Below are positions 31,788 through 64,000 of a DNA stretch of 64,000 bases, piece after piece. Source of the stretch: Candidatus Omnitrophota bacterium. Its GTDB lineage: Bacteria > Omnitrophota > Gorgyraeia > Gygaellales > Profunditerraquicolaceae. The stretch covers positions 325,165 to 389,164 of the forward strand of contig JBAZJY010000001.1 in assembly GCA_041651115.1 (NCBI GenBank), in the 5' to 3' direction. The position numbers and the translations under genes are program-made. The notes beneath the pieces were generated by a model, which saw only the letters and a program-made list of their open reading frames with translations, was not told the DNA's origin and made no database searches. Position 1 is the first letter of the stretch. Every line of letters starts with the position of its first letter.

Positions 31788-33032
31788 ATGCTCAAAAAAA
31801 TAGACAGCTTTGGCAAGAATGTCATTATTGTATTAGCTGGGACCTCGCTTTTAAATTTTTTCAATCTTGTCTGCCAGTTATTGATCGCCCACCGTTTTAA
31901 TCCGGCTGATTTCGCGGCTTTTAATTCATTGCTTGCGTTGTGCGTGATCATTGCCGCTCCTTTTGGCACGCTTCAGCCGGCAATTACGAAGTATATCGCG
32001 GAATTTCACGCCAGGGGGGAAACGGAAAAAATCAGGGTTTTTCTTTCCGCTCTCTTAAAGATATCCGGCTTGATCGGCGTGCTTATTCTTTGCGCATTTT
32101 ATTTTACTTCCCCGTTCATCGCAGAAAAGTTCAAGCTTTCCAGCGTGTTTCCCGTTTATATGCTGGGGGGGTTGATTTCTCTAGCGTGCGTCATGCCGGT
32201 TTTTTCCGGCGCGGTCCAGGGCCGGGAATTATTCGGCTGGTTTTCGGCGGTATCGGTAACCGGCGGCCTGCTGAAATTAGGTTTGATATTTATTTTTATC
32301 ATTCTTGGTTTCGGGATCACCGGGGCCATCGGGGCATTCCTTATCGCTTCCGCAATTTCCATCCTGCTATTTTTTCCGCCGCTGAAAGACTATTTTGTTC
32401 CGCCGGCCCATAAGACGAAAATAAATTTTAAAGAGCTCTTTTTCTATTTGGTCCCCGTAGCGGTAAGCTACTTCTGCTTTATGGTCATCGTCAGCTCTGA
32501 TATGATCATGGTTAAATATTACTTTAGCGCGGAAGAATCCGGGACATATGCAGTTGCGCAAGTGATCGGGAAAATATTTATGTTTTTGCCCGGGGCAATA
32601 AATATGGTGATGTTCCCGCGGACAAGCAGCCTGCACGCGAAAAACCTGGATACAACGGTGATATTAAAGCGGTCGCTGCTGTATGCAGCCGGCCTGTGCG
32701 GCATTGCCGCCGTATTCTATAATCTCTGGCCGCAGTTCTCGCTTAATGTACTTACGGGTAAGGCCGGTTATGAATCAGCTGCTTTGGGCAGGATGTTCAG
32801 CTTTTCCATGACGCTTTTTGCCTTGGTGTGGATAATGGTCATGTATTTTCTTTCGAAGCGGGACTTTCGGTTTATAAGCTGGCTTGTGCTGTTGACGTTT
32901 GCGCAGATATCCGCCATTGTCTTTTTTCACGCAACCCTGTTCCAGGTGCAGGCAGTGCTTTGCGCGGTTGCCATTTTACTTTTTTGCGTTTATTCCGTCA
33001 TATTTTTTAGCGCCCCCAAAAGGAAACGATGA
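31788..33032 (+). CDS. polysaccharide biosynthesis protein / oligosaccharide flippase (Wzx-like, MOP superfamily)
   Basis: About 12 predicted TM helices. Starts 4 nt after the tyrS stop. Confidence 0.65.
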   Translation: MLKKIDSFGKNVIIVLAGTSLLNFFNLVCQLLIAHRFNPADFAAFNSLLALCVIIAAPFGTLQPAITKYIAEFHARGETEKIRVFLSALLKISGLIGVLILCAFYFTSPFIAEKFKLSSVFPVYMLGGLISLACVMPVFSGAVQGRELFGWFSAVSVTGGLLKLGLIFIFIILGFGITGAIGAFLIASAISILLFFPPLKDYFVPPAHKTKINFKELFFYLVPVAVSYFCFMVIVSSDMIMVKYYFSAEESGTYAVAQVIGKIFMFLPGAINMVMFPRTSSLHAKNLDTTVILKRSLLYAAGLCGIAAVFYNLWPQFSLNVLTGKAGYESAALGRMFSFSMTLFALVWIMVMYFLSKRDFRFISWLVLLTFAQISAIVFFHATLFQVQAVLCAVAILLFCVYSVIFFSAPKRKR

Positions 33033-33823
33033 AGAATATCCTGGAAAAAGTCTCCATAGTAATGCCGGCGTACAACGAAGAAGGCCGCATTGTTGCCAGC
33101 ATTGAAGAAATCGTAATGACATTCAATGACTTCGGCTGCACGTGGGAACTTATAGTTATCGACGACGGCTCAACCGATAAGACTTATGCGCGTGCGAGTT
33201 CGTTAATAGAGAAATATTCCGGCCGCTTGATCGTCAAAAAGAACCCGCTTAATCTTGGAAAGGGCAGGGCGCTGAAAAAATCGCTTCATTATATAAGCGG
33301 CGATTATGCGGTATTTATCGATGCGGATATGGACCTGCATCCGATCCAGGTGCAGACATTGTTTGATATTATGCGATTGGACAATGCCGATATCGTGATC
33401 GGCTCCAAGCTCCATCCTAATTCGCGCGTTAATTATCCATTGCAGCGGCGGGTCATCAGTTTCGTTTACTATCTCTTGGTAAAAATCTTGTTTAAGTTGC
33501 CCTGCCACGACACGCAGACCGGCTTGAAGCTGTTTAAGACGGATGTCCTGCGCGCGGTTTTCCCCAGGATACTCGTAAAAAAATTCGCTTTTGACCTGGA
33601 GGTTTTAGCAAACGCGCATCATTTGGGGTATCGCATTGCCGAGGCGCCGATTGTGCTTGATTCCCGCAGGCGCTATGGCCGCATCGGCCCGACGTCAATA
33701 TTTACCACTTTTTGGGATACGTTAGCGATCTTTTACCGGATGCATATCGCAAAATACTATGACCGTATCGATTATCATCGCCGTAAAAACATGGCAAAGG
33801 AATTTAGAAGAGTGCGTCGCTAA
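33029..33823 (+). CDS. glycosyltransferase family 2 (polyprenyl-phosphate sugar synthase-like)
   Basis: VSIVMPAYNEEGRI...LIVIDDGSTDKT...DADMD GT2 motifs. Confidence 0.75.
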   Translation: MKNILEKVSIVMPAYNEEGRIVASIEEIVMTFNDFGCTWELIVIDDGSTDKTYARASSLIEKYSGRLIVKKNPLNLGKGRALKKSLHYISGDYAVFIDADMDLHPIQVQTLFDIMRLDNADIVIGSKLHPNSRVNYPLQRRVISFVYYLLVKILFKLPCHDTQTGLKLFKTDVLRAVFPRILVKKFAFDLEVLANAHHLGYRIAEAPIVLDSRRRYGRIGPTSIFTTFWDTLAIFYRMHIAKYYDRIDYHRRKNMAKEFRRVRR

Positions 33824-34712
33824 ATGCCGGGAGCTGGATTTTCCGGATTTCGAGATTATTGTCCTGCCGGACGGCCCGGTTAGCGAAGCGCAAAAAGAGG
33901 TCCGGATTATCCCTACCGGCCCGGTAAGCCCGGCGCATAAGCGGGATATCGGCTTTAAGCAGGCAAATGGCGAGATCATCGCGTTCCTGGATGACGATGC
34001 CTGGCCGGAAAAAGCCTGGCTTAAGAACGCAATAAGGCATTTTAGCGATGCTTCAATTGCCGCGGTCGGCGGTCCGGCAGTCACTCCTGTTGACGATAGC
34101 TTGTGGCAGAAGGCCAGCGGAGCGGTTTATTCCTCGCCATTGGTCAGCGGAAAGTATATTTACCGTTATATGCCGAGGCAACTGCGGCAGGTAGATGATT
34201 ACCCCAGCTGTAATTTCATTGTCCGTAAGGCAGTGTTGGAGAAAACAGGGGGGTTTAACACTAATTTTTGGCCGGGCGAAGATACAAAGCTCTGCCTTGA
34301 CATTACTCAAAAGCTTGGAAAAAAGATAATCTATGATCCGCAGGTCCTGGTCTATCATCATCGCCGCCCGGTTTTTCTTCCTCATCTGAAGCAGATTGCC
34401 AGTTATGCCGTGCACCGGGGCTATTTTGTAAAAAGATACCCTGAAACTTCCTTAAGGCCGGCTTATTTTGTGCCTTCAATTTTTCTCATAGGAATAGTGC
34501 TGGGAATGCTGGTTTCTTTGTTCGTGCCGGTAATCCGGCTTGTCTACTTGCCAGGTGTGTTTCTATACTTACTTTTGGTTCTTATCTTTAGCCTTTCTAA
34601 TGGGTTAAGCTTGCTTGGCCTGGTTTTATTTGGTATAATAACAACCCATATCACCTATGGCGCATTCTTCATAAAGGGCTTATTAACAAAACAGCTTTCA
34701 GAAGAAAATTAA
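33759..34712 (+). CDS. glycosyltransferase family 2 with C-terminal transmembrane helices
   Basis: VSIIIAVKTWQRNLEECV...FLDDDAWPEKAW GT2 motifs plus a hydrophobic C-terminus. Confidence 0.7.
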   Translation: MTVSIIIAVKTWQRNLEECVAKCRELDFPDFEIIVLPDGPVSEAQKEVRIIPTGPVSPAHKRDIGFKQANGEIIAFLDDDAWPEKAWLKNAIRHFSDASIAAVGGPAVTPVDDSLWQKASGAVYSSPLVSGKYIYRYMPRQLRQVDDYPSCNFIVRKAVLEKTGGFNTNFWPGEDTKLCLDITQKLGKKIIYDPQVLVYHHRRPVFLPHLKQIASYAVHRGYFVKRYPETSLRPAYFVPSIFLIGIVLGMLVSLFVPVIRLVYLPGVFLYLLLVLIFSLSNGLSLLGLVLFGIITTHITYGAFFIKGLLTKQLSEEN

Positions 34713-34715: not shown

Positions 34716-36194
34716 ATGAAAATCTTAATTTCGTATCCGCCGCTCAGCACTAAAAAAGGCTGTCCGACTTTGGGCCAAAACCGGCAGTTCCAGTATTTTA
34801 AGGAACCGACTTTTATTTATCCGGTTGTCCCGGCGCTTGCTGCGACACTGCTTAAAAAAGCCGGCCATGAAGCGGTCTGGAATGATTGTTTGGCCCAGGG
34901 GTGGGATTTTCCAACTTTTCTGAATTTTATCCGGAAGGAACAGCCGGGTGTAATTGTTTTTGAAACGAAGACCCCGGTTATAAAGCAGCATTGGAAAATG
35001 ATTGATGATATTAAGGGATTGTTTGCGCCGGAAACCGGGCCTAAATTTGTTTTAATGGGTGATCACGTTACCGCGTTGCCCGAAGAATCGTTTGAGAAAT
35101 CGCAGGTTGATTTTGTCCTTACCGGCGGAGATTATGATTTTCTTCTTTTGAACCTTTGTAACTATTTACGTTCGCCTGAGACCAATCTTGAGCCGGGTAT
35201 TTATTTTCGCGACGGAAAAACGGTCAAGAATACCGGTAAATTCAAATTGGACCATGACCTGGATGCACTGCCGTTCATTGACCGCGAATTGACAAAATGG
35301 CAACTCTATGCGTCTAAAAACGGCAATTATAAAAGGACGCCCGGTACATATATCATGTCCGGCCGCGATTGCTGGTGGGGCAAATGCAGTTTTTGCAGCT
35401 GGCCGGGGATGTATCCAACGTTCCGCAGCCGCTCAACGCAGAACGTACTGGAAGAGGTCGGATACTTGATCGATAAATATTCGGTCAAGGAAATAATGGA
35501 TGATACCGGCTGTTTCCCGGCAGGCGAGTGGTTGAGGGAGTTCTGCCGGGGCATGGATGAGCTTGGCTTTAGCCGGAAAGCCTATTTTGACTGCAATATG
35601 CGTTTCGGCAGCTTGAGCGTCGATGATTTTGCGCTGATGAAAAAAGCTAACTTCCGGTTGCTGCTTTTTGGCTTGGAATCCGCCAATCAGGCGACGCTGG
35701 ACAGGATTAACAAGAACTTGAAAGTCGAACGGATAATTGAAGATTGCAAGGCGGCGACGCAAGCCGGACTTTTCCCGCATATTACGATCATGTTCGGATA
35801 CCCCTGGGAGGATTACGCGCAGGCAAAGAAGACGCTGGAGTTAGGAAAGTATTTACTGCGCAAGGGATATGCTTATACGATGCAGGCAACCGTGGTCATC
35901 CCTTATCCGGGAACTCCATTGTTTGAAGAATGCAAACGCAGCCATTTGTTGAAAACTGTTGATTGGGATGATTACGATATGAAGTCGCCGGTGATGAAAA
36001 CTGCGGTCGCAGATGAAAGGATTATGGGATTGGTGCAGGGCATGTACGGGGCTTCTTTCCAGCCGGAGTTTATTTTCAGGAAAATAGCGGCCTTGAGAGA
36101 TACCGATGATCTCCGGTATTACCTGCGGGCCTTAAAAAAGGTTATCGGCCATATGTTTGATTTCAGGAGAAATCGGTTATGCTCTGGAAAATAG
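34716..36194 (+). CDS. B12-binding-domain radical SAM protein (class B)
   Basis: N-terminal cobalamin-binding-like domain. Cys cluster CWWGKCSFC. 492 aa. Confidence 0.75.
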   Translation: MKILISYPPLSTKKGCPTLGQNRQFQYFKEPTFIYPVVPALAATLLKKAGHEAVWNDCLAQGWDFPTFLNFIRKEQPGVIVFETKTPVIKQHWKMIDDIKGLFAPETGPKFVLMGDHVTALPEESFEKSQVDFVLTGGDYDFLLLNLCNYLRSPETNLEPGIYFRDGKTVKNTGKFKLDHDLDALPFIDRELTKWQLYASKNGNYKRTPGTYIMSGRDCWWGKCSFCSWPGMYPTFRSRSTQNVLEEVGYLIDKYSVKEIMDDTGCFPAGEWLREFCRGMDELGFSRKAYFDCNMRFGSLSVDDFALMKKANFRLLLFGLESANQATLDRINKNLKVERIIEDCKAATQAGLFPHITIMFGYPWEDYAQAKKTLELGKYLLRKGYAYTMQATVVIPYPGTPLFEECKRSHLLKTVDWDDYDMKSPVMKTAVADERIMGLVQGMYGASFQPEFIFRKIAALRDTDDLRYYLRALKKVIGHMFDFRRNRLCSGK

Positions 36195-36454
36195 TCGGCC
36201 TGACTGCCGCGTTGTTAACCACCTTTTCTTTTGTCCCGCAGATCATAAAAGTGAGGAGGTCGCGGTCAGTCAAAGATGTCAGCCTGATAACCCTGGTCCA
36301 GTTTTCTGCCGGCGTTTTCTTGTGGGCCCTGTACGGCATTTTTTTAAGGGACGTGATTATAATCAGCGCTAACTGCGTGACGCTGGTAACGCTGTGTATC
36401 CTGCTATCGCTTTATTTTAAATATTCTAAAATGGAGAAGCCCGATGAGGCTTAA
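36179..36454 (+). CDS. SemiSWEET / PQ-loop family small sugar transporter
   Basis: 91 aa with three TM helices and a PQ motif (FSFVPQIIKV). Confidence 0.6.
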   Translation: MLWKIVGLTAALLTTFSFVPQIIKVRRSRSVKDVSLITLVQFSAGVFLWALYGIFLRDVIIISANCVTLVTLCILLSLYFKYSKMEKPDEA

Positions 36455-37853
36455 AGACAAAGAAAGCTATTACGCGGTAATTTTAGCCGGCGGCCAGGGA
36501 AGCCGTTTCTGGCCGCAAAGCCGCACGCTTGAGCCGAAACAATTCCTCTCTTTCTACCGGGATAAAAGCCTTTTTGAGCAGACCCTGGAGCGGATTAAGC
36601 CGCTTATACCTGCCGAGAATACGATTATTGTTACTTCCGACCTATACCGCCATCAGATCCATGAGTTCATTAAACCGTTTAATATTCCCGACGATAACCT
36701 GATTTTTGAGCCGGAAGGAAAGAATACTGCTCCTTCGATTGCCGTAGCAGCGCAGATGATCTTTAGTCGTGATCCGGATTCCCGTGTTTGCGTCATGCCT
36801 TGCGACCACCTGATTAAGCATAGCCGGCAATTCATAAAGATCATTAGCCGCGCATTAGCTTTGTGTAAAGACCGCATGGTCATATTTGGAATACCGCCGC
36901 ACAGGCCAGCTACTGGATATGGTTATATCAAGGCAGGTAAAAAAACCGGGGCCTTCCTGAAGGTAGACAGGTTTTGCGAAAAGCCCGACATTGCCACTGC
37001 CCGGCGGTTTGTGAAAAGCGGAGCTTATTTTTGGAATAGCGGGATATTCGCCGCTTCCAGCCGGACTTTCCTTGAAGAATTTAAGACTTATCTTCCGGAT
37101 CTTTACCGTCAAACCCTGAAGATCAACAGCGCAAGCGATCTAAAGATCGTTTGGAAAAAAATAAAACCGGAATCCTTTGATTACGGGATTTTAGAGAAAT
37201 CCCGCAGGCTATTAATGATCCCCGCGGAAGGGTTGGGTTGGTCAGACCTTGGCAGTTGGCAGGCCTGGGATGAAGTGCTGGAAAAAGACAAAGATACGAA
37301 TATCCTTAATGCCGACGTGGTAAGCCTGCATAGCAAGAACATTACGGTTGTGGGTAATAACCGGCTCATTGCCACGATCGGGCTGGACGATTTGATCATT
37401 GTGGATACCGCAGACGCGCTTTTGGTCGCCCGTAAAAACAAGACCGAGCATGTTAAGAGCGTAGTGGATATCCTTAAACAAAAGGGCAGGCTGGAACATT
37501 ATGCGCATCGCACGGTAAAACGGCCATGGGGATCTTATACGGTTTTAGAATCCGGCAGCGGATATAAAGTCAAGCTGGTAGAGGTCAAGCCAAAGCATTC
37601 ACTTAGCCTGCAGTATCATAATAAGCGCAGCGAGCATTGGGTGGTTGTGGAAGGCCGGGCAAGGCTCGTTAAAGGTAAAAGGACCTGTGTTTTGGAAACA
37701 AACCAAAGCATTTATGTACCGGTAGGCTGCGTGCACCGGATCACTAATCCCGGGGACGGCATATTAAAGATCATTGAAGTACAGGCAGGCGCCTACCTGG
37801 GCGAGGATGATATTGTGCGGCTAAAGGATGACTTCGGCCGTTTGAGCAGATAA
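36444..37853 (+). CDS. manC: mannose-1-phosphate guanylyltransferase / mannose-6-phosphate isomerase (cupin C-terminus)
   Basis: YAVILAGGQGSRFWPQSRTLEPKQFL. C-terminal cupin HRITNPGDG. Confidence 0.85.
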   Translation: MRLKDKESYYAVILAGGQGSRFWPQSRTLEPKQFLSFYRDKSLFEQTLERIKPLIPAENTIIVTSDLYRHQIHEFIKPFNIPDDNLIFEPEGKNTAPSIAVAAQMIFSRDPDSRVCVMPCDHLIKHSRQFIKIISRALALCKDRMVIFGIPPHRPATGYGYIKAGKKTGAFLKVDRFCEKPDIATARRFVKSGAYFWNSGIFAASSRTFLEEFKTYLPDLYRQTLKINSASDLKIVWKKIKPESFDYGILEKSRRLLMIPAEGLGWSDLGSWQAWDEVLEKDKDTNILNADVVSLHSKNITVVGNNRLIATIGLDDLIIVDTADALLVARKNKTEHVKSVVDILKQKGRLEHYAHRTVKRPWGSYTVLESGSGYKVKLVEVKPKHSLSLQYHNKRSEHWVVVEGRARLVKGKRTCVLETNQSIYVPVGCVHRITNPGDGILKIIEVQAGAYLGEDDIVRLKDDFGRLSR

Positions 37854-37873: not shown

Positions 37874-38854
37874 ATGATAAAAAACAAACGGGTGATGGTC
37901 AGCGGCGCCGGCGGTTTTATCGGCAGCCATTTAGCAAGAGAACTAAGCGAACAGGGAAATTTTGTACGGGCGGTGGATATTAAATGGGATGATTATATTG
38001 CTGATCCGCGCTATTCGGAAAAACTTACACTTGATCTGCGCCAGCCGGAGAGCTGCTTTAAGGCAACGCAAGGCATGGACTATGTATTTAACCTCGCGGC
38101 AAATATGGGAGGTATCGGGTTTATTTCTTCTGTCGGCGCGGAAGTAATGTATGACAACGTACTGATCAATGCGCACATTGCCCGGTCTTGCGTGAAAAAT
38201 AAGGTAAAGCGGTTATTCTTTTCGTCATCCGCCTGCATCTATCCCACTTACCGCCAGGAAAGCCCGGAAGTAAAACCGCTGAAGGAAGCAGACGCTTATC
38301 CGGCTAACCCGGATAATTTCTACGGCTGGGAGAAATTATATGCGGAGATAATGTTGGAGGCTTTTAATAAGGACAACGGCCTGGATGTCCGGATTGCCCG
38401 TTTTCATAACGTCTACGGACCAGAAGGCACTTATACCGGAGGCAGAGAAAAATCTCCTGCGGCAATCTGCCGTAAAGTTGCGGAAGCCGCTAATCCGGGC
38501 GAGATTGAGATATGGGGCGATGGCCTGCAGACACGCTCTTACTGTTATATTGACGACTGTGTGCGCGGCATCATCATGCTTATGGGGTCTGATTATGGCA
38601 AACCGCTGAATATCGGATCTGACCGGCTGGTTACGATCAATCAGCTGGCGGATATTGCGATAAATGTTTCAGGCAAGAAGATCGCGAAAAAATATGCCCG
38701 CAGCGCCCCGCAGGGGGTAAGGGGCAGGAATGCCGATCTTACTTTGGTAAAAAAAGTTCTAGGCTGGCATCCGGAAATAAGCCTTGAGCAGGGAATAGAG
38801 AATACGTATTTATGGATCGAAAAAATGATCAGCGCCAAAGTAAAAATGGCATAA
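37874..38854 (+). CDS. NAD-dependent epimerase; GDP-mannose 3,5-epimerase-like
   Basis: VMVSGAGGFIGSHLARELSEQGNFVRAVDIKWDDY and ARFHNVYGPEGTYTGGREKSPAAICRK match GME-family signatures recalled from plant/bacterial GME. Confidence 0.65.
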   Translation: MIKNKRVMVSGAGGFIGSHLARELSEQGNFVRAVDIKWDDYIADPRYSEKLTLDLRQPESCFKATQGMDYVFNLAANMGGIGFISSVGAEVMYDNVLINAHIARSCVKNKVKRLFFSSSACIYPTYRQESPEVKPLKEADAYPANPDNFYGWEKLYAEIMLEAFNKDNGLDVRIARFHNVYGPEGTYTGGREKSPAAICRKVAEAANPGEIEIWGDGLQTRSYCYIDDCVRGIIMLMGSDYGKPLNIGSDRLVTINQLADIAINVSGKKIAKKYARSAPQGVRGRNADLTLVKKVLGWHPEISLEQGIENTYLWIEKMISAKVKMA

Positions 38855-56198: not shown

Positions 56199-56900
56199 AT
56201 GAAGAATATTGCCGCAGTGGTCTTATGTGGGGGGCAAGGCAGCCGGCTTAAGGGTTTGGTCAGCGACCGGCCTAAACCGATGGCGGATATCAGCGGTTCG
56301 CCTTTTATGGATATTTTGATCAGGCATCTACGAAGTTTCGGAATAAAAAAATATATCTTATGCGCAGGGTTTATGGCCGGCTATATTGAAGAATATTATC
56401 ATCGTGAAATGGCGGCGGGGGATTTGGTTATTGTAAAAGAAAAACTGCCGTTGGGAACTGCAGGGGCGATAAGCCACGCGCAGGATTTCATTGAAACCGA
56501 TCATTTTTTGGTTGTGAACGGTGATTCATTTTGCGCTGCTGACCTTAATGCATTTTTAGACTTTCATTCGGCTAAAAAGGCACGGTTGTCCATGGTTGTG
56601 TCCCGTATAGACAATGCAGCGGATTGCGGCAGCATTATTTTAGATGATACGAATAGGGTCGTAAGATTTGAGGAAAAGAAACATAGAGGTACGGCGTTGG
56701 CCAATGCCGGGATTTATCTGTTTAGCAGGGAAGTACTTTCATTGGTGCCTAAGGGCCTAAAGTATTCCCTGGAGAGAGATCTCTTCCCCCGGATGGCAGG
56801 AAAAGATTTCTACGGTTTTTTGACCGACGCCAAGCTTTTCGATATCGGGACGCCCGAGCGTTACGCAGAGGCAAAGACGTATTTCAAGGATAAAAAATAG
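56199..56900 (+). CDS. sugar-1-phosphate nucleotidyltransferase (heptose-1-P guanylyltransferase HddC-like)
   Basis: AAVVLCGGQGSRLKGLVSDRPKPMADISGSPFMD. About 235 aa. Confidence 0.7.
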   Translation: MKNIAAVVLCGGQGSRLKGLVSDRPKPMADISGSPFMDILIRHLRSFGIKKYILCAGFMAGYIEEYYHREMAAGDLVIVKEKLPLGTAGAISHAQDFIETDHFLVVNGDSFCAADLNAFLDFHSAKKARLSMVVSRIDNAADCGSIILDDTNRVVRFEEKKHRGTALANAGIYLFSREVLSLVPKGLKYSLERDLFPRMAGKDFYGFLTDAKLFDIGTPERYAEAKTYFKDKK

Positions 56901-56912: not shown

Positions 56913-59306
56913 ATGGCAGAAAAAAGAAAAAAGGCGATTATTTTGGGTGCCGGGCCGCTCGGCCTGGTCACCGGTTGGCAGTTACTGCTTCACGACTGGT
57001 CAGTAGACATTTACGAAAAAGAAGCGCAGACCGGCGGGGCATGTAAAACCTGGAAATGGGACGGTTTTCTTGTTGATACGGGGCCGCATATCTATCATAC
57101 TCCGGACCAGGAATTAGCCAAATTCTGGGAGGCCGAATTCGCAGGCCTGTTCATTAAGGATGATTTTTGGTGCAAGAACGTCAAAGGAGAAGGTTTTACG
57201 GAATTCTGGGATTATCCGTTGTCATGGGAGAGCATTTCCCGCTATCCAAAAACGTTAAAAGAGAAGATTGTTAGAGAGTTGGATAACTTAAGCCTTGAAA
57301 CAAAAGCCAAGGCGCGCAATTACGCAGAATATATGCAGGCGCAGGTAGGCCCGACTTTAAACGAAATATTCTTTAAGAAATATCCCGCGAAGATCTGGGG
57401 TATATCTACCGATGATATGGCTGCGGATTGGGCTCCTAAAAGGATAGAATTTCGTCAAAAGGTAACGCCATTTTATCATAAGCAGTGGAATGCTGCAGGT
57501 AAGTACGGCACAGGCTGCATCTTTCAAAGGATCGAAGAGAAAATATTAAAATTAGGCGGCAAGATCCATATTAATGCGGAAGTAACCGGCATATCAGCAA
57601 AATCTAATACGATTACCGCGGTAAAGATCAATCATGCAAAAAATATTCCCGTTGGCAGTGACGATATGGTGATTTCCAGCCTACCGATAACCCTGCTTTC
57701 CAGGTTCCTTGGCTATGCAAGCAAATTGCATTTTCGCTCTTTGCGCACAGTTTATCTGGCTTATAATAAAGAAACGGTCTTACCGCAGGGCATACACTGG
57801 TTGTATTATGATTCCGATAAAGTCCTTTTCCACCGGATCACCGAGCCTAAAAAGCTCTCTGCCTTCGTTGCTCCTAAAGGTAAGACCTATCTTGCTGCCG
57901 AGATAACCTGTGATAAGGACGACCGCATATATAGCATGGAAGAAAAAACGCTTATTAAGAAAATAGCCGAGCAGGTCGAACAAGTCGGGTTGGCGCGTAG
58001 GAAAGACATGATTAATGGCGCAACGCACAGGCAAGATGCAGTTTATCCGGTTCAATATCGGGGATATCAGAACGAGCTTGCAAAAGTGCGTTCCCGGATT
58101 GCTAAATACCAGCAGCTTTATTCGCTCGGTACGGGCGGAGAATTCCATTATTCCGATATACAGGTGATCTTCCATAAAGCCTTTGATACCGCGGCAATGC
58201 TTTGCGGAAAGGATTCTTCTTTTGCGCAGGTATTGCGTTGTGCCAGCCGTTGTGAATTAAACCGGCAGGTTACGATAGGCAGAAGAAAGATCGGCGAGGG
58301 CAACCGGGCTTACATTATCGCAGAGGCCGGCTTGAACCATAACGGGAGCATAGATCTTGCTAAAAAGTTGATTGATGCTGCCAAGAAAACCGGCTGTGAT
58401 GCAATAAAATTCCAGGCGTTTAGGGCGGAAAGCCGGGTTTCAAAAAAAGTAAAGGCCGCCAGATACGCGGAAAAGATCATCGGCACGGAAGAGACACTGT
58501 TTGAGATGTTTGACCGTTTATCTTTGAGTTTCAAGGCGCAGGAAGAGATCTTCCGGTATGCCCGGAAAACCGGCATAGAGATTTTTTCTACGCCGTTTGA
58601 TTTTGAGAGTGTGGACTTCCTGGAATCTTTAGGCGTGAAGGCCTATAAGATCGCCTCTATGGATCTGGTAAATCTACCGTTTATCCGCTACGTTGCCAAA
58701 ACAAAAAAGCCGGTCATTCTTTCTACGGGCATGTCAACATTGGGCCAGATCGAGGAGGCTGTTGAGGCGGTTGCAAGCGAAGGGAACTCTAATCTTGTCC
58801 TGTTGCATTGTAATTCTTCTTATCCGGCAGCTCCGGAAGAGATGAATCTCAATGTTATGCGTGCGCTAAGAGAATGCTTTGCCGTGCCGGTCGGGCTCTC
58901 CGATCATACCTTGGGCCTGTTCGTATCCCGCATTGCCATAGCTATCGGAGCAAATGTTATTGAGCGACATTTTACCTTAAACCGGATGTTCGAAGGTCCC
59001 GATCATATCCTGTCTTCTGAACCGGAGGAAATGAAACAGCTGGTAGATGCGGCAAAAATGATCCCGCTTGTCCTTGGCGATAGCGGCAAGCGGATCCAGC
59101 CTAATGAATACGATACGCTTAACGCTCAAAGAAAAAGCCTTTATGCGGCGAGGCGCATCAGAAAAGGAGAGGCGATTGCTTCGGGTATGATCGCTGTAAA
59201 AGGCCCGGGTGGCGGCATACTGCCGCGATACATGGATATAGTCGTCGGGCGGAATGCGAGAACTGATATTGAGCAGGACTATCCGATAACCTGGGATGTG
59301 ATATGA
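56913..59306 (+). CDS. fusion protein: N-terminal FAD-dependent UDP-galactopyranose-mutase-like domain plus C-terminal NeuB-family (sialic/nonulosonic acid synthase) domain with SAF domain
   Basis: N-terminus AIILGAGPLGLVTGWQLL...GPHIYHT (UGM GPHIFHT motif). C-terminus RAYIIAEAGLNHNGSIDLAKKLIDAAKKTGCDAIKFQAF plus a C-terminal SAF region. 797 aa in a single ORF. Confidence 0.65.
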   Translation: MAEKRKKAIILGAGPLGLVTGWQLLLHDWSVDIYEKEAQTGGACKTWKWDGFLVDTGPHIYHTPDQELAKFWEAEFAGLFIKDDFWCKNVKGEGFTEFWDYPLSWESISRYPKTLKEKIVRELDNLSLETKAKARNYAEYMQAQVGPTLNEIFFKKYPAKIWGISTDDMAADWAPKRIEFRQKVTPFYHKQWNAAGKYGTGCIFQRIEEKILKLGGKIHINAEVTGISAKSNTITAVKINHAKNIPVGSDDMVISSLPITLLSRFLGYASKLHFRSLRTVYLAYNKETVLPQGIHWLYYDSDKVLFHRITEPKKLSAFVAPKGKTYLAAEITCDKDDRIYSMEEKTLIKKIAEQVEQVGLARRKDMINGATHRQDAVYPVQYRGYQNELAKVRSRIAKYQQLYSLGTGGEFHYSDIQVIFHKAFDTAAMLCGKDSSFAQVLRCASRCELNRQVTIGRRKIGEGNRAYIIAEAGLNHNGSIDLAKKLIDAAKKTGCDAIKFQAFRAESRVSKKVKAARYAEKIIGTEETLFEMFDRLSLSFKAQEEIFRYARKTGIEIFSTPFDFESVDFLESLGVKAYKIASMDLVNLPFIRYVAKTKKPVILSTGMSTLGQIEEAVEAVASEGNSNLVLLHCNSSYPAAPEEMNLNVMRALRECFAVPVGLSDHTLGLFVSRIAIAIGANVIERHFTLNRMFEGPDHILSSEPEEMKQLVDAAKMIPLVLGDSGKRIQPNEYDTLNAQRKSLYAARRIRKGEAIASGMIAVKGPGGGILPRYMDIVVGRNARTDIEQDYPITWDVI

Positions 59307-60361
59307 GCATGAATTACGAGAAGACTGCGCGGGAGTTAATCAGCAGAGTAACAGATACGGCAAAAACAAAAAAGAAACTTTCCGGATTTTGCATCGGTAA
59401 TACTGCAAAGATCGAGAATAACGATTTATATTTTACTCCCCTGAGAGAAATACATAATATGTCCATTGCCGGGGTAATTGTTTATAGCGAAAAGCAGGCG
59501 ATTGATATTGCCAGGGAGGCAGATGGCAAGGTAGATTATATCCTGGTAGATGCGGAAAAAAAGATACCGGAATGCATGTCGCGCCTTGGCACGCCGGCGA
59601 ATGTTGAGCGGGCAGTAAGAGAAACCGTAAAAAAATCTTCGCTTTGGGTATACAAAGGGAATGATCTGGCAGTCGAAGCATTAGACGGGTTACTCGCGTA
59701 TCTTACTAAAGATTCTTTGCAGGGGATAGGCGGGAAAAAGATCGCGATCATCGGCGCGGGAAATCTGGGGTGTAAGTTAGCCATTAAGCTCGTAGAAAGA
59801 GGGGCGCATATATTTATTACCCGCAGGGATGCTGCAAAGATAAAAATCATTGCCAAAGCGATTAATCATATTAAACCTGCCTATACTATTGCAAAAGTCA
59901 TCGGCATGACTGATAACTTGGCTGCCTGCAAAGGAGCGGACATTTTGATCGGGATGACTGCGGGGATCCCGGTGATCACCGCGGAAATGATAAGGAGCCT
60001 TGCCCCGGGGGCCATTGTCGTTGACGGTGGAAAAGGCACGTTATACCCGGAAGCAATAGGCGCCGCTTATAAATCGGGTATTGAGGTTTACCGTCTTGAT
60101 GTCAGCGCTGCCTTTGAAGGGTTGATCAGCCATCTCTTTGCTTGCGAGAACCTGGTGAGAAAACGCATGGGCCGCCGGGTTTTTAGGGGAGAGCCGATCG
60201 TCTCCGGAGGATTAATGGGCAGAAAAGGGGATATCGTCGTAGATAATGTCCATGCCCCTAGTATGGCCTATGGTATTGCCGACGGCAAAGGAGATTTTAT
60301 CCGCTCCCTTTCCCAAAAACACTTAGCGCGTATGAAAAGTATTAAAGTGCAAGAAAAGTAA
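59303..60361 (+). CDS. hypothetical protein with Rossmann NAD(P)-binding domain (shikimate/quinate-DH-like)
   Basis: GKKIAIIGAGNLGCKLAIKLVERGAHIFITRRD. Confidence 0.35.
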   Translation: MSMNYEKTARELISRVTDTAKTKKKLSGFCIGNTAKIENNDLYFTPLREIHNMSIAGVIVYSEKQAIDIAREADGKVDYILVDAEKKIPECMSRLGTPANVERAVRETVKKSSLWVYKGNDLAVEALDGLLAYLTKDSLQGIGGKKIAIIGAGNLGCKLAIKLVERGAHIFITRRDAAKIKIIAKAINHIKPAYTIAKVIGMTDNLAACKGADILIGMTAGIPVITAEMIRSLAPGAIVVDGGKGTLYPEAIGAAYKSGIEVYRLDVSAAFEGLISHLFACENLVRKRMGRRVFRGEPIVSGGLMGRKGDIVVDNVHAPSMAYGIADGKGDFIRSLSQKHLARMKSIKVQEK

Positions 60362-60383: not shown

Positions 60384-62135
60384 ATGCATTATGAAGACTT
60401 GATCCCTGAAAATGGATATGTAGTTGCCGAGATTGCCTGTGGGCATGGCGGCGATCCGGCAAAACTTAAAAAACTGATTGATTGCGCTGCTTTAAGCAAT
60501 GCCAGGATCGTTAAATTCCAGATTTTTACCCTGGAGGAAAGGCTGGATCCTCGCTGGGATATTTTTGCTAAACTGGTGCTGCCGCAGCAGGCATGGGAAG
60601 AAGCAGCGCGCTATGCGCGTCAAAAAGGACTCGTCATATTTGCAGATATCTTTGGCGAGAGCAGCCTAAAGCTTGCCCGGGAATTGGGCGTTGAAGGTTT
60701 TAAAGTGCATTCCGAGGACATGTTGAACAGTTCTTTTGTTGCCAAGGTCGCCGCAGAAGGAAAGATCACAATGATCAGCGTAGGGGGTGCGCACCGTATA
60801 GAAATATATCAACTGGTAAATTTTCTAAAGACCCTGGGGTTGCTTAAAAATATTATATTAGTTACCGGATTTCAGGCTTATCCTACCCCGATAGAAGATC
60901 ACTCTTTATGGGAAGTCGCGGATTTGATCGAAAAATATTCGCCTTACGGCATAAAAGTTGCGTTTGCCGATCATGTTTCCGGAGATTTGCCCGAAGCCAA
61001 GGCAATACCCCTGATGGCGCTTGCGAAAGGCGCCTGCCTTGTTGAAAAACATATTACCGTTAATCGCAAGCGTAAGTGGGTAGATTATCAGTCGGCGTTA
61101 AGTAAAGACGATTTTACAGATTTTATCGGGCAGGTGAATCAGCTGGCTCCTTTATTGAAAAAAACCGGCTATTTTACGTCTTCCGAAGAAAAATACCGGA
61201 AGACATTTAAAAAAAGTGCCTGCGCTGCATCTGACTTGAAAAATGGCCGCATCCTGGCGCCGGATGACTTTGGGTTCAATAAAAATAATACTGATGAAGT
61301 GCCTTCCCTTGCTGCCTTAAGCCTGATCGGCAAAGAACTCAAGGTAGATGTTAAAAAAGGAGAATTTTTTCGCTCTTCGCAGATGAAGGGTAAAGTTGGC
61401 GGGATCATTGTTGCCCGCTGCTCATCAAATCGGCTGCCGAATAAAGCGTTATGCCTGATTGACGGCCGCGAGTCGATAGCGGTGCTTATTGACCGGATCA
61501 AGCGCTGCAAGCGTTTAGATTGCATTATCCTGGCAACTTCTACCGATCATTCCGATGATATTCTGGTTGAGATAGCTAATCGTGAGGGCATTTTGCCTTT
61601 CCGGGGATCTTTGGAAAATGTTTCGTCGCGGTTCTACGAAGCGGCTAAATATTACGGATTAGACCATTTCGTGCGTATCACCGGAGATGCCATTCTTTGT
61701 GACGAAGTAATGATCGACCATGCAGTAAAAAGCCATTTACATAGTTGTTGTGATGCGACTTTTATGAAAAATATGCCTTTTGGCACACATAAAGAAGTAG
61801 TCAGCATGAATACAATAAGAACGATCCTTGATACCGCTGCCATCCCATCCAATACCGAATATCTGGAATATTACCTGGAGAACAGCCGCTATTTTAACAT
61901 CAATTACGTCGCTGCCGATTACGTATTTGACCATAATTTACGCATTACGCTGGACTACGAAGAAGACCTGGAATTATTCAGGCGCATATACGGCCATTTT
62001 AATAAAATTAACCCGGCGTTTACGTTACGCGATGCCCTTGCCTGGTTGGGGGAGCATCCGGAAATCGCAAAAATCAATATGCACAAACGGCAAAAGTTTT
62101 TAAGCCACCAGCTCAATGTCGAGCTACACATTTAA
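60384..62135 (+). CDS. fusion protein: divergent NeuB-like TIM-barrel domain plus SpsF/NeuA-type cytidylyltransferase domain
   Basis: N-terminus YVVAEIACGHGGDPAKLKKLIDCAALSNARIVKFQIF (NeuB-like, no SAF domain). C-terminus GGIIVARCSSNRLPNKALCLIDG (acylneuraminate cytidylyltransferase/SpsF-like). Confidence 0.6.
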   Translation: MHYEDLIPENGYVVAEIACGHGGDPAKLKKLIDCAALSNARIVKFQIFTLEERLDPRWDIFAKLVLPQQAWEEAARYARQKGLVIFADIFGESSLKLARELGVEGFKVHSEDMLNSSFVAKVAAEGKITMISVGGAHRIEIYQLVNFLKTLGLLKNIILVTGFQAYPTPIEDHSLWEVADLIEKYSPYGIKVAFADHVSGDLPEAKAIPLMALAKGACLVEKHITVNRKRKWVDYQSALSKDDFTDFIGQVNQLAPLLKKTGYFTSSEEKYRKTFKKSACAASDLKNGRILAPDDFGFNKNNTDEVPSLAALSLIGKELKVDVKKGEFFRSSQMKGKVGGIIVARCSSNRLPNKALCLIDGRESIAVLIDRIKRCKRLDCIILATSTDHSDDILVEIANREGILPFRGSLENVSSRFYEAAKYYGLDHFVRITGDAILCDEVMIDHAVKSHLHSCCDATFMKNMPFGTHKEVVSMNTIRTILDTAAIPSNTEYLEYYLENSRYFNINYVAADYVFDHNLRITLDYEEDLELFRRIYGHFNKINPAFTLRDALAWLGEHPEIAKINMHKRQKFLSHQLNVELHI

Positions 62136-62188
62136 CACAAGTTCAATGAAGAGCTAAAATTATTATCAGAAACCATGGAGATGATAAT

Positions 62189-64000
62189 ATGAAGCTGAGG
62201 ATCATTGCTGGCCGCGGGCTGGTAGAAAAATATCGTTCTGAAAAAGAATTAAAGAATATCTATGTATCTGCTGATTTTTTGGTGCAAGGCGATTCTTCGG
62301 TAATCACAATCGAAGATAAGGCCCGGGCCAGGGCATTTTTTTACGGGCGCGTTATCGGCAGGCGCAGCGGTCCGGATACGATGGACAGCTTAAGCAAGAC
62401 GGACGTTAATTTTAAATCGTTTGTATCCTCGCAGCCGACAGACAAGTGCCTGGCGGAACTGGAAGGCCGGTTTATCCTTGTTAAGATCACTGATAAACAG
62501 GGATGCGAGGTCTGTTGCGACCGTTTCGGCCGGATCGACCTTTATTACCAGCAAATAAACGAAGGGGCGGTATTTGCGTCTGACCTAAGCCTACTGCCGT
62601 TTAAGGACGGCACAGTAAAATATGACCCGGTTGGCATTGCCCACGCACTTTATATCTACGGGTTCCGGCCGGCAAAGCAGCATACTATTTACCGCGATGT
62701 AAAGAGGCTGGGGGTAGGTGAAATTGCTTCTTGGCAAGATAACAAGCTTGGATTCCGGCAATTTGTATTCCCCAGAATAGAAACTAACGAGAATTACGGC
62801 GAAAAAGATATTAAGAGATATTATGACATTATCATTGATGCAATAGCAAAACGCGCATCGAGTAACGGTAATCTGATTTATCTTTCTTCAGGGTGGGACT
62901 CCAGCTCGCTACTTTCCCTGTTAGTAAAACTCTATGGAGCAAATAAGACAAGGGCATTGATCGGCCGGATGCACCTGTCTAAGCGCGCCGGTGTGATCAA
63001 TCAATTTGAGATCGACCGCGCTAAACGGATTGCCGATTATTTCGGCATAAAATTAGAGATTGCAGAATATGATTTTTGGCAAAGAAGCGATGAGCTGATC
63101 GCGGAATTGCAGCCGTTTATGCGTTCGCATATGCTTACCAGCATGTCATTCTTTTTCTGGGCAGTATTAGCTGCCCAGGCGGCAAAAACCAGCCGCGGCG
63201 AAGCCGTATTCGCAGGCGAGACCAGCGACGGCGCGCATAACCTGGGCTTTGCGCAGTTTACCACTATTTTTCATCCGGTACTGGAATTCCGCGAGTACAG
63301 CGATAAAATGGCCTCGTATCTTTTTGGGCCGACATTCCTTAGGTCTATACAGAACGGTAAATTTAATACAGACCCGATCTATAACTTGTTAAAACAAAAA
63401 TACCAGGGGCGCGTTTTTGATTCTCCGGCAAGCAGCCCGGATGGCTGCGCGCGCCAATTATTTGCCGCTCTTTTTAGCCGCGATAACCGCATGCCGCTTT
63501 GGTCATTAAAAAATACAAAGCTGATGACCGATAGAGGGCGGCAGGGTTACAGCGACGAGATGGAAGGAACGTACTTCAATAAGCTGGAAACTTCTCCGGA
63601 AACGCTATATGCTTCTTACTTGCGCCTATACAACTCTTTTCATTGGCAAGGCGGCACAGTGTCAACGCTGGCGTTCACGGCCAATAACTACGGACTGGAA
63701 ATGAACCTTCCGTATTGGGACAGCCGGATGCAGGATTTCTTATCGGCAATGCCGGAATCCTGGGGCAGGGGCCTGGAAATAAAGCCGACCAAGTATCCTT
63801 TAAAAGCCATGCTCCGGCAATACGTTGATTATCCCTGGCATCTGCAGGCAGGGCCGCATTCTTACCTGTATGATATCGATCCTAATTTCAGCCCTGTCGG
63901 CGAGTTTATTTATGATTCTGCGTTTACGCCGCATTTAAAAAGATTATTGAAAAGCCGCGCGTATGAAAGTATCTTGTCGCCGGAATTTTTCGATCTGGAT
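62189..64000 (+). CDS. asparagine-synthetase-family amidotransferase lacking the N-terminal Cys nucleophile (PseA/WbpG-like); 3' end outside the window
   Basis: PP-loop LSSGWDSSSLLSLL (AsnB SGGLDSS-like). The N-terminus is MKLRIIAG, with no Cys2. GGAGATGA RBS. The ORF runs off the window end and is absent from the track. Confidence 0.65.
   Translation, partial: MKLRIIAGRGLVEKYRSEKELKNIYVSADFLVQGDSSVITIEDKARARAFFYGRVIGRRSGPDTMDSLSKTDVNFKSFVSSQPTDKCLAELEGRFILVKITDKQGCEVCCDRFGRIDLYYQQINEGAVFASDLSLLPFKDGTVKYDPVGIAHALYIYGFRPAKQHTIYRDVKRLGVGEIASWQDNKLGFRQFVFPRIETNENYGEKDIKRYYDIIIDAIAKRASSNGNLIYLSSGWDSSSLLSLLVKLYGANKTRALIGRMHLSKRAGVINQFEIDRAKRIADYFGIKLEIAEYDFWQRSDELIAELQPFMRSHMLTSMSFFFWAVLAAQAAKTSRGEAVFAGETSDGAHNLGFAQFTTIFHPVLEFREYSDKMASYLFGPTFLRSIQNGKFNTDPIYNLLKQKYQGRVFDSPASSPDGCARQLFAALFSRDNRMPLWSLKNTKLMTDRGRQGYSDEMEGTYFNKLETSPETLYASYLRLYNSFHWQGGTVSTLAFTANNYGLEMNLPYWDSRMQDFLSAMPESWGRGLEIKPTKYPLKAMLRQYVDYPWHLQAGPHSYLYDIDPNFSPVGEFIYDSAFTPHLKRLLKSRAYESILSPEFFDLD

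Follow-up and report, generated by a model that had tools for sequence, protein, structure and literature searches.

In Campylobacter jejuni, capsular GDP-heptose is modified by enzymes that include HddA/HddC, the C4-dehydrogenase Cj1427, Cj1430-type C3/C5 epimerases and Cj1428-type C4 reductases, and the paper describing this pathway makes no mention of a transketolase (PMC10680097). For the Streptomyces nucleoside antibiotics miharamycin and amipurimycin, a transketolase encoded by a split gene has been proposed to add a hydroxyacetyl group to a keto-sugar (PMC12247030). Here we analyze a glycan locus of a Candidatus Omnitrophota bacterium that shares features with both systems. It lies in a 64,000-nt stretch of contig JBAZJY010000001.1 (assembly GCA_041651115.1, positions 325,165 to 389,164 of the forward strand), hereafter referred to as the window, and begins at position 31788, directly after tyrS.

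We consider it probable that a chromosomal surface-glycan locus spanning 40 kb or more has one of its ends in the window, and that this three-module mosaic serves mainly to produce activated, tailored sugars. An open reading frame (ORF) listing combined with Pfam and NCBIfam scans places 31 plus-strand genes in 31788-64000, the last of them cut by the window end, and nearly all encode nucleotide-sugar or glycan enzymes (Table 1). With the most probable start codons, no intergenic gap exceeds 53 nt across the 31 genes, and many genes overlap by 4-17 nt. The last letter of the TAA that stops tyrS is at 31784, and the flippase gene follows with its ATG at 31788; the product of the upstream gene is of the TyrRS type (tRNA-synt_1b, S4 and SYY_C domains). 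An 81-kb Logan contig carrying the same DNA extends the cluster at least 8 kb beyond 64000; for the sequence further on, an exact 75-mer query against metagenome contigs and an exact protein query with the next gene product returned nothing. A preliminary description of this DNA had proposed a co-directional glycan locus of more than 32 kb after tyrS, and the locus proved real from 31788 onward, although it continues past the window. Co-directionality, in turn, is a trait of the whole region and not special to the locus, as every long ORF of the 64 kb lies on the plus strand and the cumulative GC skew climbs steadily.

On sequence evidence, the region is a mosaic of module A (31.8-42.2 kb), module B (42.2-56.9 kb) and module C (56.9 to at least 72 kb), each also found separately in other genomes. 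Compared to a Wzx/Wzy-dependent O-antigen or exopolysaccharide (EPS) cluster, the locus has a Wzx-like flippase but lacks Wzy, Wzz or another chain-length regulator, and a priming phosphoglycosyltransferase, none of which was found in 31.8-64 kb or the following 8 kb; the only proteins with multiple transmembrane (TM) segments in this span are the flippase, the second family 2 glycosyltransferase (GT2), a SemiSWEET and an ABC exporter. The missing polymerase and regulator had been noted before for the window. Their absence, with that of a priming transferase, over about 40 kb agrees with the earlier view of a supply and tailoring locus for heavily modified, possibly chain-extended and nonulosonic-type sugars rather than a plain O-antigen.

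Surface-glycan loci are common and this type is known; of interest here are two conserved cassettes with uncharacterized chemistry. These cassettes, modules B and C, are widespread and probably make complex sugars, and we found no literature describing either.

Module B, a recurring cassette around a split transketolase

We used the MiaB-like protein of module B as an anchor for a protein search, which returned more than 2000 homologs. The best 120 of these are 373-420 aa long (mostly about 390 aa) and 46-60% identical, and their sources include Omnitrophota, Methanoperedens, Magnetococcales, Saganbacteria, Methylomirabilia, Desulfomonilaceae, Desulfovibrio and Patescibacteria. Three annotated contexts and 32 genome loci were then compared with the window proteins, and counts are given over 33 loci. 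The split transketolase accompanies the MiaB-like gene in 27 of the 33 loci, spread over about ten phyla including archaea. Four of the six loci without it are short or cut contigs or carry distant homologs (35-38% identical); locus L019, with a homolog of 46% identity and 8.7 kb of upstream sequence, is a genuine exception.

The other genes of the module recur to differing degrees. The CalS11-like methyltransferase gene adjoins that of the N-terminal transketolase subunit, tktN, in 22/33 loci (46-72% identity), the GHMP kinase is present in 17/33, the Cj1427-like short-chain dehydrogenase/reductase (SDR) in 12/33 (52-72% identity) and the pair of RmlC-like protein and SDR5 in about 9/33. SDR5 orthologs are 64-71% identical and adjoin the RmlC-like gene, SDR4 adjoins the MiaB-like gene in most loci, and SDR3 orthologs reach 37-57% identity in cassette loci. 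The B12-binding radical S-adenosylmethionine (SAM) enzyme at 47873 has orthologs of 54-55% identity in L026 and L028, and the 344-aa protein at 46914 has one of 63% in L028. Cassette-bearing loci include those of Geobacter, Rhodospirillales and Pirellulales, and related loci also carry GmhA/GmhB, Wzm/Wzt, Wzz and glycosyltransferases.

In an archaeal Methanoperedens locus (L002/L005; GCA_028715885, 3142-16112), SDR2 is 67%, the methyltransferase 70%, tktN 67%, tktC (the C-terminal subunit) 77% and the kinase 66% identical to the window proteins. This locus additionally has GmhA- and GmhB-type genes, a DegT aminotransferase and Wzm/Wzt, and L002 also a transaldolase. Identities of 66-77% imply a recent transfer between domains. 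Given its recurrence and the identities across distant phyla, module B is a horizontally spread cassette inside glycan loci.

The preliminary description would have been refuted had homology searches placed the radical SAM and transketolase genes in unrelated cofactor pathways. This check did not refute it: the best family matches are cofactor, lipid or ribosomally synthesized and post-translationally modified peptide (RiPP) families, all far below cut-offs, and in 27 of the 33 related loci the genes sit in sugar-nucleotide cassettes.

The idea that the cassette acts on a heptose is strengthened by three sets of sequence matches. The SDR at 42551 matches PDB 6vo6/6vo8 with an E-value of 3e-123 (414 bits) and conserves the YGRLK motif. 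The best PDB matches of the second RmlC-like cupin (8db5, 8dco and 8dcl) are GDP-D-glycero-4-keto-D-lyxo-heptose epimerases, and those of the GHMP kinase (3k85, 4usk/4usm and 4n3o) are heptose phosphate kinases, except that the 4usk/4usm entries are labeled no more specifically than sugar kinase. SDR4 and SDR5 match GDP-mannose 3,5-epimerase (GME) and GDP-fucose synthases, including 7m13, 7anc and 7anh, which are deposited as GDP-L-fucose synthase. The structures matched by the methyltransferase at 44474, 4gf5/3tos, are of CalS11, a TDP-rhamnose 3'-O-methyltransferase.

Module B thus shares with the C. jejuni GDP-heptose pathway a Cj1427-type SDR, a GDP-4-keto-heptose epimerase-like cupin, GDP-fucose-synthase-like SDRs, a heptose-kinase-like GHMP protein and a guanylyltransferase-like enzyme. 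To these it adds the split transketolase, two radical SAM enzymes (one of the MiaB family but lacking TRAM, the other B12-binding), and CalS11-like and FkbM methyltransferases. Unlike the C. jejuni pathway, the window locus has no GmhA/GmhB, and three of its SDRs lack the canonical Tyr.

Aligned to the split transketolase 6yak, tktN keeps the GDG/N motif that binds thiamine diphosphate (ThDP) and the conserved transketolase His positions; aligned to 6yaj, tktC keeps the cofactor-activating Glu and a DG-TH motif. In contrast to a canonical transketolase, in which these features are joined by a phosphate-binding His and Arg, the window enzyme lacks both residues and falls below the family cut-off (NF004559; 205 and 97 bits compared to 488). 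The His of the ATHAG motif is Gly, Ala or Ser in all cassette transketolases, and the Arg of RLGRS is Asp in every homolog 55-77% identical to the window protein. The closest structural relative of the enzyme is the housekeeping-type split transketolase of Carboxydothermus. We infer, by analogy, that the enzyme may no longer act on sugar phosphates and may instead move its C2 ketol to the carbonyl of a GDP-keto-heptose.

The analogy is to the miharamycin and amipurimycin enzymes (PMC12247030), which are likewise encoded by two genes amid sugar oxidoreductases and for which a keto-sugar is a plausible acceptor. The likeness is one of description; those transketolases serve Streptomyces nucleoside antibiotics in a step that is itself a proposal, whereas the window genes lie in a putative GDP-heptose surface-glycan cassette. 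Cleavage of a 6-keto-heptose side chain by the transketolase was also considered and dropped, since C5 bears the ring oxygen and has no free hydroxyl.

The MiaB-like protein keeps the six cluster Cys; across 27 homologs five of these never vary, and the first N-terminal Cys is found in 90% or more. Its AlphaFold2 (AF2) model (pLDDT 92) has MtaB, MiaB and RimO as best folds (TM-scores of 0.70-0.74), and AprD4 is also among the fold matches. It shares with MiaB, RimO and MtaB the N-terminal UPF0004 domain with three Cys, the CxxxCxxC radical SAM core and the fold. It differs from them in its identity of about 20%, its TIGR00089 score (164 compared to 251 bits), its place amid nucleotide-sugar rather than translation genes, and the missing TRAM domain: no TRAM match was found in the sequence, and the modeled C-terminus is mainly helical, with no TRAM barrel. 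These features suggest a radical step on a sugar, with methylthiolation as one option. As in class B radical SAM methylases, the 47873-49507 protein combines B12-binding and radical SAM domains, and methyl transfer is predicted for it.

We hypothesize that module B would make a heavily modified GDP-heptose. The HddA/HddC-like kinase and nucleotidyltransferase would activate a heptose, the Cj1427-type dehydrogenase would oxidize C4, and the RmlC-like epimerase with the GDP-fucose-synthase-like SDRs would reset stereocenters. The CalS11-like and FkbM methyltransferases would then O-methylate the sugar and the B12 radical SAM enzyme would C-methylate it. The split transketolase, minus its two phosphate-binding residues, would add a two-carbon ketol to the carbonyl of the nucleotide-linked keto-sugar, yielding a branch or a chain extension. 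Finally, the MiaB-family enzyme could carry out a radical step on the sugar, either methylthiolation or another two-cluster reaction.

A flavin-NeuB fusion protein and its partners in module C

Module C opens with a fusion gene whose product joins a flavin domain resembling UDP-galactopyranose mutase (UGM) and protoporphyrinogen oxidase (PPO) to a NeuB domain. Its scores lie just under the cut-offs for both NeuB (TIGR03569, 387 bits compared to 400) and PseI (324 compared to 340), and the NeuB half is 30-35% identical to solved PseI and NeuB structures, its best fold matches. The N-terminal half aligns with nearly the whole UGM model TIGR00031. It resembles UGM in its Pfam GLF match above cut-off, in having that fold among its best matches and in its motifs: in an alignment with Glf, GPHIYHT, KIWG and KRIEFR fall in register, giving the common patterns GxHI(F/Y)HT, K-x-WG and KRIxxR. 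It differs in scoring 40 bits compared to 304 on TIGR00031, in matching PPO folds equally, and in being fused to NeuB.

A search with the fusion protein returned 714 homologs, of which the best 120 are 755-819 aa long (mostly about 795 aa) and 59-70% identical, with a mean column identity of 74% in the alignment. Sources include Margulisiibacteriota, Marinimicrobia, Thermodesulfobacteriota, Gammaproteobacteria, Magnetococcales and Nitrososphaerales archaea, and in a metagenome scan 566 or more stretches matched, with marine assemblies contributing many of them. Of the fusion loci, 42 have 3 kb or more of flanking sequence; the gene for the 352-aa NAD-binding protein adjoins the fusion gene in 41 of these, 24 encode a NeuB-like/cytidylyltransferase (CTP_transf_3) fusion and 20 a classical SDR. 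At least two annotated fusion contexts have the cytidylyltransferase as a gene of its own. In the second NeuB-like domain, the stretches ADHVSG and EKHITV resemble LSDHT and ERHFT of the first; we take their two His to be the NeuB metal ligands. The AsnB-like protein starts with MKLRII and thus has no N-terminal Cys, and its weak matches include lasso-peptide and macrolactam cyclases.

Gene order in L040, L045 and L080 is as in the window. The junction between modules B and C recurs in L118, which carries the GHMP kinase, nucleotidyltransferase and fusion protein at 62, 43 and 67% identity. In L039 (1198-10921), transketolase, a Cj1427-like SDR (78%) and GHMP kinase genes directly precede the fusion gene, and in L040 a Cj1427-like SDR does so. 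As these genes directly precede the fusion gene elsewhere, the heptose and NeuB cassettes may be functionally linked, which we regard as a hint. Homologs of the MarR-family EPS-associated (MarR_EPS) regulator at 42214 (37-51% identity) occur in the fusion-gene loci L061, L078, L086, L103, L114 and L115.

The described nonulosonic acid pathways (NeuB/NeuA for sialic acid, PseI, and LegI with its GDP-linked precursors and Ptm genes) share with module C a NeuB domain with SAF, a CMP-transferase domain, a nearby PtmA-like SDR and a guanylyltransferase-like gene directly upstream. Unlike these pathways, the window has neither a NeuC/LegG/PseG hydrolase nor the set of 4,6-dehydratase, aminotransferase and acetyltransferase; a search of the window for NeuC/LegG/PseG-type hydrolases (Epimerase_2) and for DegT/aminotransferases found none. 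Instead, its NeuB is fused to the flavin domain and paired with the 352-aa NAD-binding protein. NeuB needs a free aldose, not a furanose nucleotide, and during UGM catalysis attack by the reduced flavin releases the nucleotide, with opening of the sugar ring. Because the window lacks such a hydrolase and the N-terminal half of the fusion is UGM-like, we propose that the flavin domain may stand in for the hydrolase step.

Module C would then make a CMP-activated 3-deoxy-2-ulosonic acid by a non-canonical route. The flavin domain would displace the nucleotide of an NDP-sugar and open its ring, the open-chain aldose would be passed to the fused NeuB domain and condensed with phosphoenolpyruvate, and the cytidylyltransferase domain would produce the CMP-sugar.

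Weighing the single-locus reading against its alternatives

The sequences show directly which genes and families are present and how the cassettes are conserved and linked. What the enzymes act on, in which order they do so, and what reactions the transketolase, MiaB-like enzyme and flavin domain catalyze is what we infer, and this and several further points weigh against the single-locus reading or its proposed chemistry. The HddA/HddC-type scores are far under the equivalog cut-offs. A heptose route needs GmhA and GmhB, which are not found in the window or the next 8 kb and are present in just 3-4 of the 33 cassette loci. PDB 6vo6 is presumably, but not certainly, Cj1427. The reductase and epimerase roles of SDR3, SDR4 and SDR5 are uncertain because the catalytic Tyr of the canonical YxxxK motif is missing (FGWTM, AAWMK and AGWAK, respectively); in their orthologs the motif takes related forms (GVGWxxR, mostly YGWMR, and (Y)GGWAK or AGWAK).

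Similar reservations apply to the unusual enzymes. The replaced tktC residues presumably correspond to E. coli His461 and Arg520, which hold the substrate phosphate. A more remote group of cassette transketolases, 26-37% identical to that of the window (L011, L013, L014, L020-L022, L027, L034 and L036) and usually encoded directly before the methyltransferase and MiaB-like genes, lacks the His but retains the Arg of RLGRS. The best folds of the N-terminal half of the fusion are UGM and PPO equally, in a model with a pLDDT of 69, and its match to E. coli Glf (E 6e-7) was obtained with a provisional version of the Glf sequence. Promoter and terminator scans of the locus gave no excess over shuffled controls, and the three modules may contribute to a single glycan or to more than one.

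The same genes might belong to three unrelated neighboring operons, with A making an EPS- or O-antigen-like polymer, B a heptose glycan and C a nonulosonic-type sugar for glycosylation of a protein such as pilin, flagellin or an S-layer. We find this doubtful, if deserving of serious attention. Each module does occur without the others in other genomes, and two export routes are present, the Wzx-like flippase and the HepA/MsbA-like ABC transporter past the window, as is a PtmA-like classical SDR after the window (130 bits compared to 350). At the A/B junction, the 31-nt gap before the MarR_EPS regulator gene is the only candidate internal boundary, with a weak hairpin and a promoter-like TTGACT-16-TAAAAT site at 42179-42206; such sites are no commoner in the locus than in shuffled sequence, and this gene is the probable start of module B on weak evidence only. 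Since the whole window is co-directional, orientation is no argument for one locus. However, the gaps of at most 53 nt continue throughout with no convincing terminator, the B/C junction recurs in L118, L039 and L040, and just three glycosyltransferases in 40 kb are too few for three glycans.

That the transketolase is an ordinary one, feeding sedoheptulose-7-phosphate to the heptose route, with the radical SAM enzymes working in cofactor, lipid or RNA-modification pathways, we judge unlikely. Its nearest structure is the Carboxydothermus housekeeping-type enzyme, the catalytic His, the Glu and the ThDP motifs are intact, a transaldolase accompanies it in L002, and the radical SAM genes have HpnJ, BchE, ApyD and MiaB/RimO as their best NCBIfam matches. 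Yet all these matches are far under cut-off (139 bits compared to 578, 132 to 481 and 164 to 251, with 205 and 97 to 488 for the transketolase), and two canonical phosphate-binding residues are replaced in every close homolog. A CalS11-type methyltransferase and SDRs flank the transketolase genes in 22-27 of the 33 loci, and the MiaB-like protein lacks the RNA-binding TRAM domain. More improbable still is that the genes form a secondary-metabolite cluster in the manner of aminoglycoside or peptidyl-nucleoside pathways, making a small molecule that is glycosylated or derived from sugars. The natural-product relatives (CalS11, the miharamycin/amipurimycin split transketolase, the B12 radical SAM methylases and the AprD4 fold match) and the weak lasso-peptide and macrolactam cyclase matches of the AsnB-like protein point in this direction. 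Against them stand the Wzx-like flippase, the polyprenyl-phosphate-type GT2, the MarR_EPS regulator and the HepA/MsbA-like exporter; the Wzz, Wzm/Wzt and several glycosyltransferases of related loci; and the spread of the cassettes over many phyla and their abundance in marine metagenomes. No polyketide synthase, non-ribosomal peptide synthetase, aglycone or resistance genes were seen.

We suggest tentatively that modules B and C may be two undescribed sugar pathways, widespread in uncultured bacteria and archaea, that use the proposed transketolase, MiaB-like and flavin-NeuB chemistry. The product of module B may then be a branched or chain-extended, C- and O-methylated and possibly methylthiolated higher sugar, and module C may be a NeuC/LegG-independent route to a CMP-ulosonic acid. 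The cassettes are conserved and mobile, with proteins 45-77% (module B) and 50-70% (module C) identical across distant phyla, and they contain unusual enzymes: a transketolase minus two phosphate-binding residues, a MiaB-type enzyme minus its RNA-binding domain and a flavin-NeuB fusion. If the suggestion is true, many uncultured microbes would carry new complex surface sugars, and three well-studied enzyme families would have a wider substrate range. The enzymes are soluble and hence amenable to in vitro work with enzymatically made GDP-heptose.

Gene inventory, module A and surroundings

Table 1. Genes of the glycan locus and of its surroundings, with the evidence for each assignment (bit scores are given against the family cut-off where one applies)
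Region	Coordinates	Strand	Feature	Evidence
A	31788..33032	+	Wzx-like MOP-family flippase, 414 aa	PF01943 Polysacc_synt 56 bits vs 28; 10 predicted TM segments
A	33029..33823	+	GT2, soluble, polyprenyl-phosphate-sugar-synthase-like	PF00535 96 bits
A	33759..34712	+	GT2 with two C-terminal membrane segments	PF00535 + PF13632; MftF-like 122 bits vs 280
A	34716..36194	+	Radical SAM enzyme, class-B (B12)-like, 492 aa	PF04055
A	36179..36454	+	SemiSWEET, 91 aa, 3 TM	PF04193 + PF03083; NF037968 SemiSWEET_2 87 bits vs 80
A	36444..37853	+	ManC, mannose-1-phosphate guanylyltransferase / mannose-6-phosphate isomerase	TIGR01479 500 bits vs 373
A	37874..38854	+	Extended SDR, GDP-fucose-synthase/GME-like, canonical YGWEK motif	PF01370; NF047922 144 bits vs 500
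A	38812..39762 (start 38854 possible)	+	Class I methyltransferase-like (Methyltransf_24)	PF13578 50 bits vs 26
A	39785..40654	+	RmlA	TIGR01207 466 bits vs 361
A	40655..41218	+	RmlC	TIGR01221 251 bits vs 156
A	41208..42182	+	RmlB	TIGR01181 412 bits vs 365
B	42214..42564	+	MarR-family EPS-associated regulator	TIGR04176 106 bits vs 88
B	42551..43501	+	Cj1427-type SDR, GDP-heptose C4-dehydrogenase homolog	PDB 6vo6/6vo8, full length
B	43509..44489	+	Extended SDR (SDR3), non-canonical motif FGWTM	PF01370
B	44474..45244	+	NDP-sugar O-methyltransferase, CalS11/TylF type	PDB 4gf5/3tos, 196 bits, E 5e-57
B	45241..46023	+	Split transketolase-like, N-terminal (ThDP-binding) subunit, tktN	PF00456; PDB 6yak 175 bits
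B	46007..46891	+	Split transketolase-like, C-terminal (pyrimidine-binding) subunit, tktC	PF02779; PDB 6yaj 113 bits
B	46914..47948	+	344-aa protein, weakly class I methyltransferase-like	GDIGAGLG motif; CpaM 20.7 bits; Methyltransf_11 E 0.22
B	47873..49507 (probable start 47966)	+	B12-binding radical SAM enzyme, class B	PF02310 + PF04055
B	49476..50525 (probable start ~49536)	+	Extended SDR (SDR4), GME/GDP-fucose-synthase-like, motif AAWMK	PF01370; PDB matches
B	50538..51716	+	MiaB/RimO-family radical SAM enzyme without TRAM domain	PF00919 + PF04055; TIGR00089 164 bits vs 251
B	51709..52731	+	FkbM-family methyltransferase	PF05050; TIGR01444 60 bits vs 38
B	52748..53737	+	GDP-fucose-synthase-like SDR (SDR5), probable C4 reductase, motif AGWAK	PDB matches
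B	53734..54234	+	Second RmlC-like cupin, GDP-4-keto-heptose 3,5-epimerase-like	PDB 8db5, 8dco, 8dcl, E 8e-37; TIGR01221 153.2 bits vs 155.75
B	54248..55177	+	309-aa protein without family	Stretch ELQGKGY resembling Q-x-x-G-x-G/A
B	55199..56194	+	GHMP kinase, HddA-like	PF00288 + PF08544; NF049969 146 bits vs 600
B	56199..56900	+	Sugar-1-phosphate nucleotidyltransferase, HddC/ManB-like	PF00483; NF052502 162 bits vs 440; NF049965 130 bits vs 300
C	56913..59306	+	UGM/PPO-like FAD domain + NeuB + SAF fusion, 797 aa	PF03102 305 bits; PF03275 GLF 34 vs 26; PF01593; PF08666
C	59303..60361	+	NAD(P)-binding protein, 352 aa	PF01488 + PF03807
C	60384..62135	+	NeuB-like + CMP-sugar cytidylyltransferase fusion, 583 aa	PF03102 117 bits + PF02348 73 bits; TIGR03569 150 vs 400
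C	62189..64000	+	AsnB-superfamily protein, cut by window end	PF00733 30 bits vs 21; TIGR01536 51 vs 267
8 kb after window			Rest of AsnB-like gene	whole protein 639 aa in L001
8 kb after window			Radical SAM/SPASM enzyme	
8 kb after window			Classical SDR, PtmA-like (flagellin-modification family)	130 bits vs 350
8 kb after window			434-aa soluble protein without family assignment	
8 kb after window			HepA/MsbA-like ABC exporter	
8 kb after window			GT2 of TIGR04440 type	
8 kb after window			Two Gfo/Idh/MocA oxidoreductases	
Housekeeping	1..31784		PolX, ApbE, PanB, class II aminoacyl-tRNA synthetase, PPDK, sigma-70 factor	
Housekeeping	1..31784		tRNA-Arg(CCT), TonB-dependent receptor, solute-binding protein, radical SAM protein, ABC exporter	
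Housekeeping	1..31784		Sensor kinase, response regulators, L21, Obg, ProB, ProA, NadD, Rpe	
Housekeeping	1..31784		Phosphomanno/phosphoglucomutase, PlsC, ribosomal protein S1, TyrRS	

Much of the gene content named in the preliminary description is recovered in Table 1. The flippase (PF01943, 10 TM segments) and the two GT2 genes (PF00535) are present, rmlA/C/B, manC and the SemiSWEET gene all score above NCBIfam equivalog cut-offs, the split transketolase occupies 45241-46891, and the proposed HddA/HddC-like activation corresponds to a GHMP kinase and a nucleotidyltransferase of that type, with heptose kinases as best PDB matches. Three radical SAM enzymes were indeed found; of the two said to bind B12, one has the Pfam B12 domain and one is assigned by best-family matches only, and the third belongs to the MiaB family. 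Both NeuB-like fusions exist, and the cytidylyltransferase listed beside them is the C-terminal half of the second, not a separate gene.

Other counts had to be revised. In place of four paralogous SDRs there are six extended SDRs, which are not recent paralogs, since they are 22-32% identical to each other and each has its own orthologs elsewhere at up to 72%. Only four of five methyltransferase-like genes were found (38812, 44474, the weak case at 46914, and 51709). The supposed PseA-like amidotransferase is an AsnB-superfamily protein with no N-terminal Cys and no match to the PseA/WbuX family. Three genes had been missed: the MarR_EPS regulator (42214-42564), the second RmlC-like epimerase (53734-54234) and the 352-aa NAD-binding protein (59303-60361).

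We note that several products match their families weakly. The top NCBIfam matches of the GT2 at 33029 are PpgS, AglJ, ArnC and a dolichyl-P hexose transferase, all under cut-off. Those of the radical SAM protein at 34716-36194 are mostly B12-binding families (HpnJ, 139 bits compared to 578; BchE), none at cut-off, and it has no Pfam B12-binding match; the B12-binding enzyme at 47873 likewise reaches no NCBIfam equivalog. The methyltransferase-like product at 38812 has no NCBIfam match. For the protein at 54248-55177, called GNAT-like in the preliminary description, no Pfam (E <=0.5) or NCBIfam match was found, and its one PDB match, to a GNAT protein, is weak (E 1.3), so that this assignment could not be confirmed.

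Module A would supply GDP-mannose through ManC and a dTDP-4-keto-6-deoxy-hexose through RmlA/B/C, with lipid-linked steps carried out by the Wzx-like flippase, the polyprenyl-phosphate-sugar-synthase-like GT2, the membrane GT2 and the SemiSWEET. Compared to the dTDP-L-rhamnose pathway (RmlABCD), it has RmlA, RmlB and RmlC above equivalog cut-offs but lacks the 4-reductase RmlD; none was found in the locus, where the best TIGR01214 score among the SDRs is 61 bits compared to 224. A phosphomannomutase/phosphoglucomutase gene at 26779-28200, 3.6 kb upstream of the locus, could provide the sugar-1-phosphates for ManC and RmlA. The SemiSWEET gene lies between the B12-type radical SAM gene and manC, with the polyprenyl-phosphate-sugar-synthase-like GT2 gene (33029-33823) two genes further upstream. 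Eukaryotes depend on a PQ-loop protein, MPDU1, to use dolichol-P-mannose; given this precedent and the nearby polyprenyl-phosphate-type GT2, a role of the SemiSWEET in using or flipping polyprenyl-P-sugars is conceivable by analogy. We found no literature on, and no conserved context for, SemiSWEET genes in glycan operons.

GC content is 0.43-0.48 throughout, and the composition profile has no clear foreign island. A repeat search of the window returned SDR motif repeats only, with no mobile-element ends, and an Rfam scan of the window found only tRNA. Upstream of the locus, 15754-18838 holds a gene for a 457-aa radical SAM protein adjoining an MsbA-type ABC exporter and a TonB receptor/solute-binding pair; this region appears unconnected to the glycan locus. 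In the gap between rpsA and tyrS, positions 30477-30591 form an imperfect hairpin of about 115 nt with 45-nt arms. It matches no Rfam family and has no U-tract after it; with an RNA minimum free energy of -65.3 kcal/mol (z = -8.4 compared to shuffles), it is very stable.

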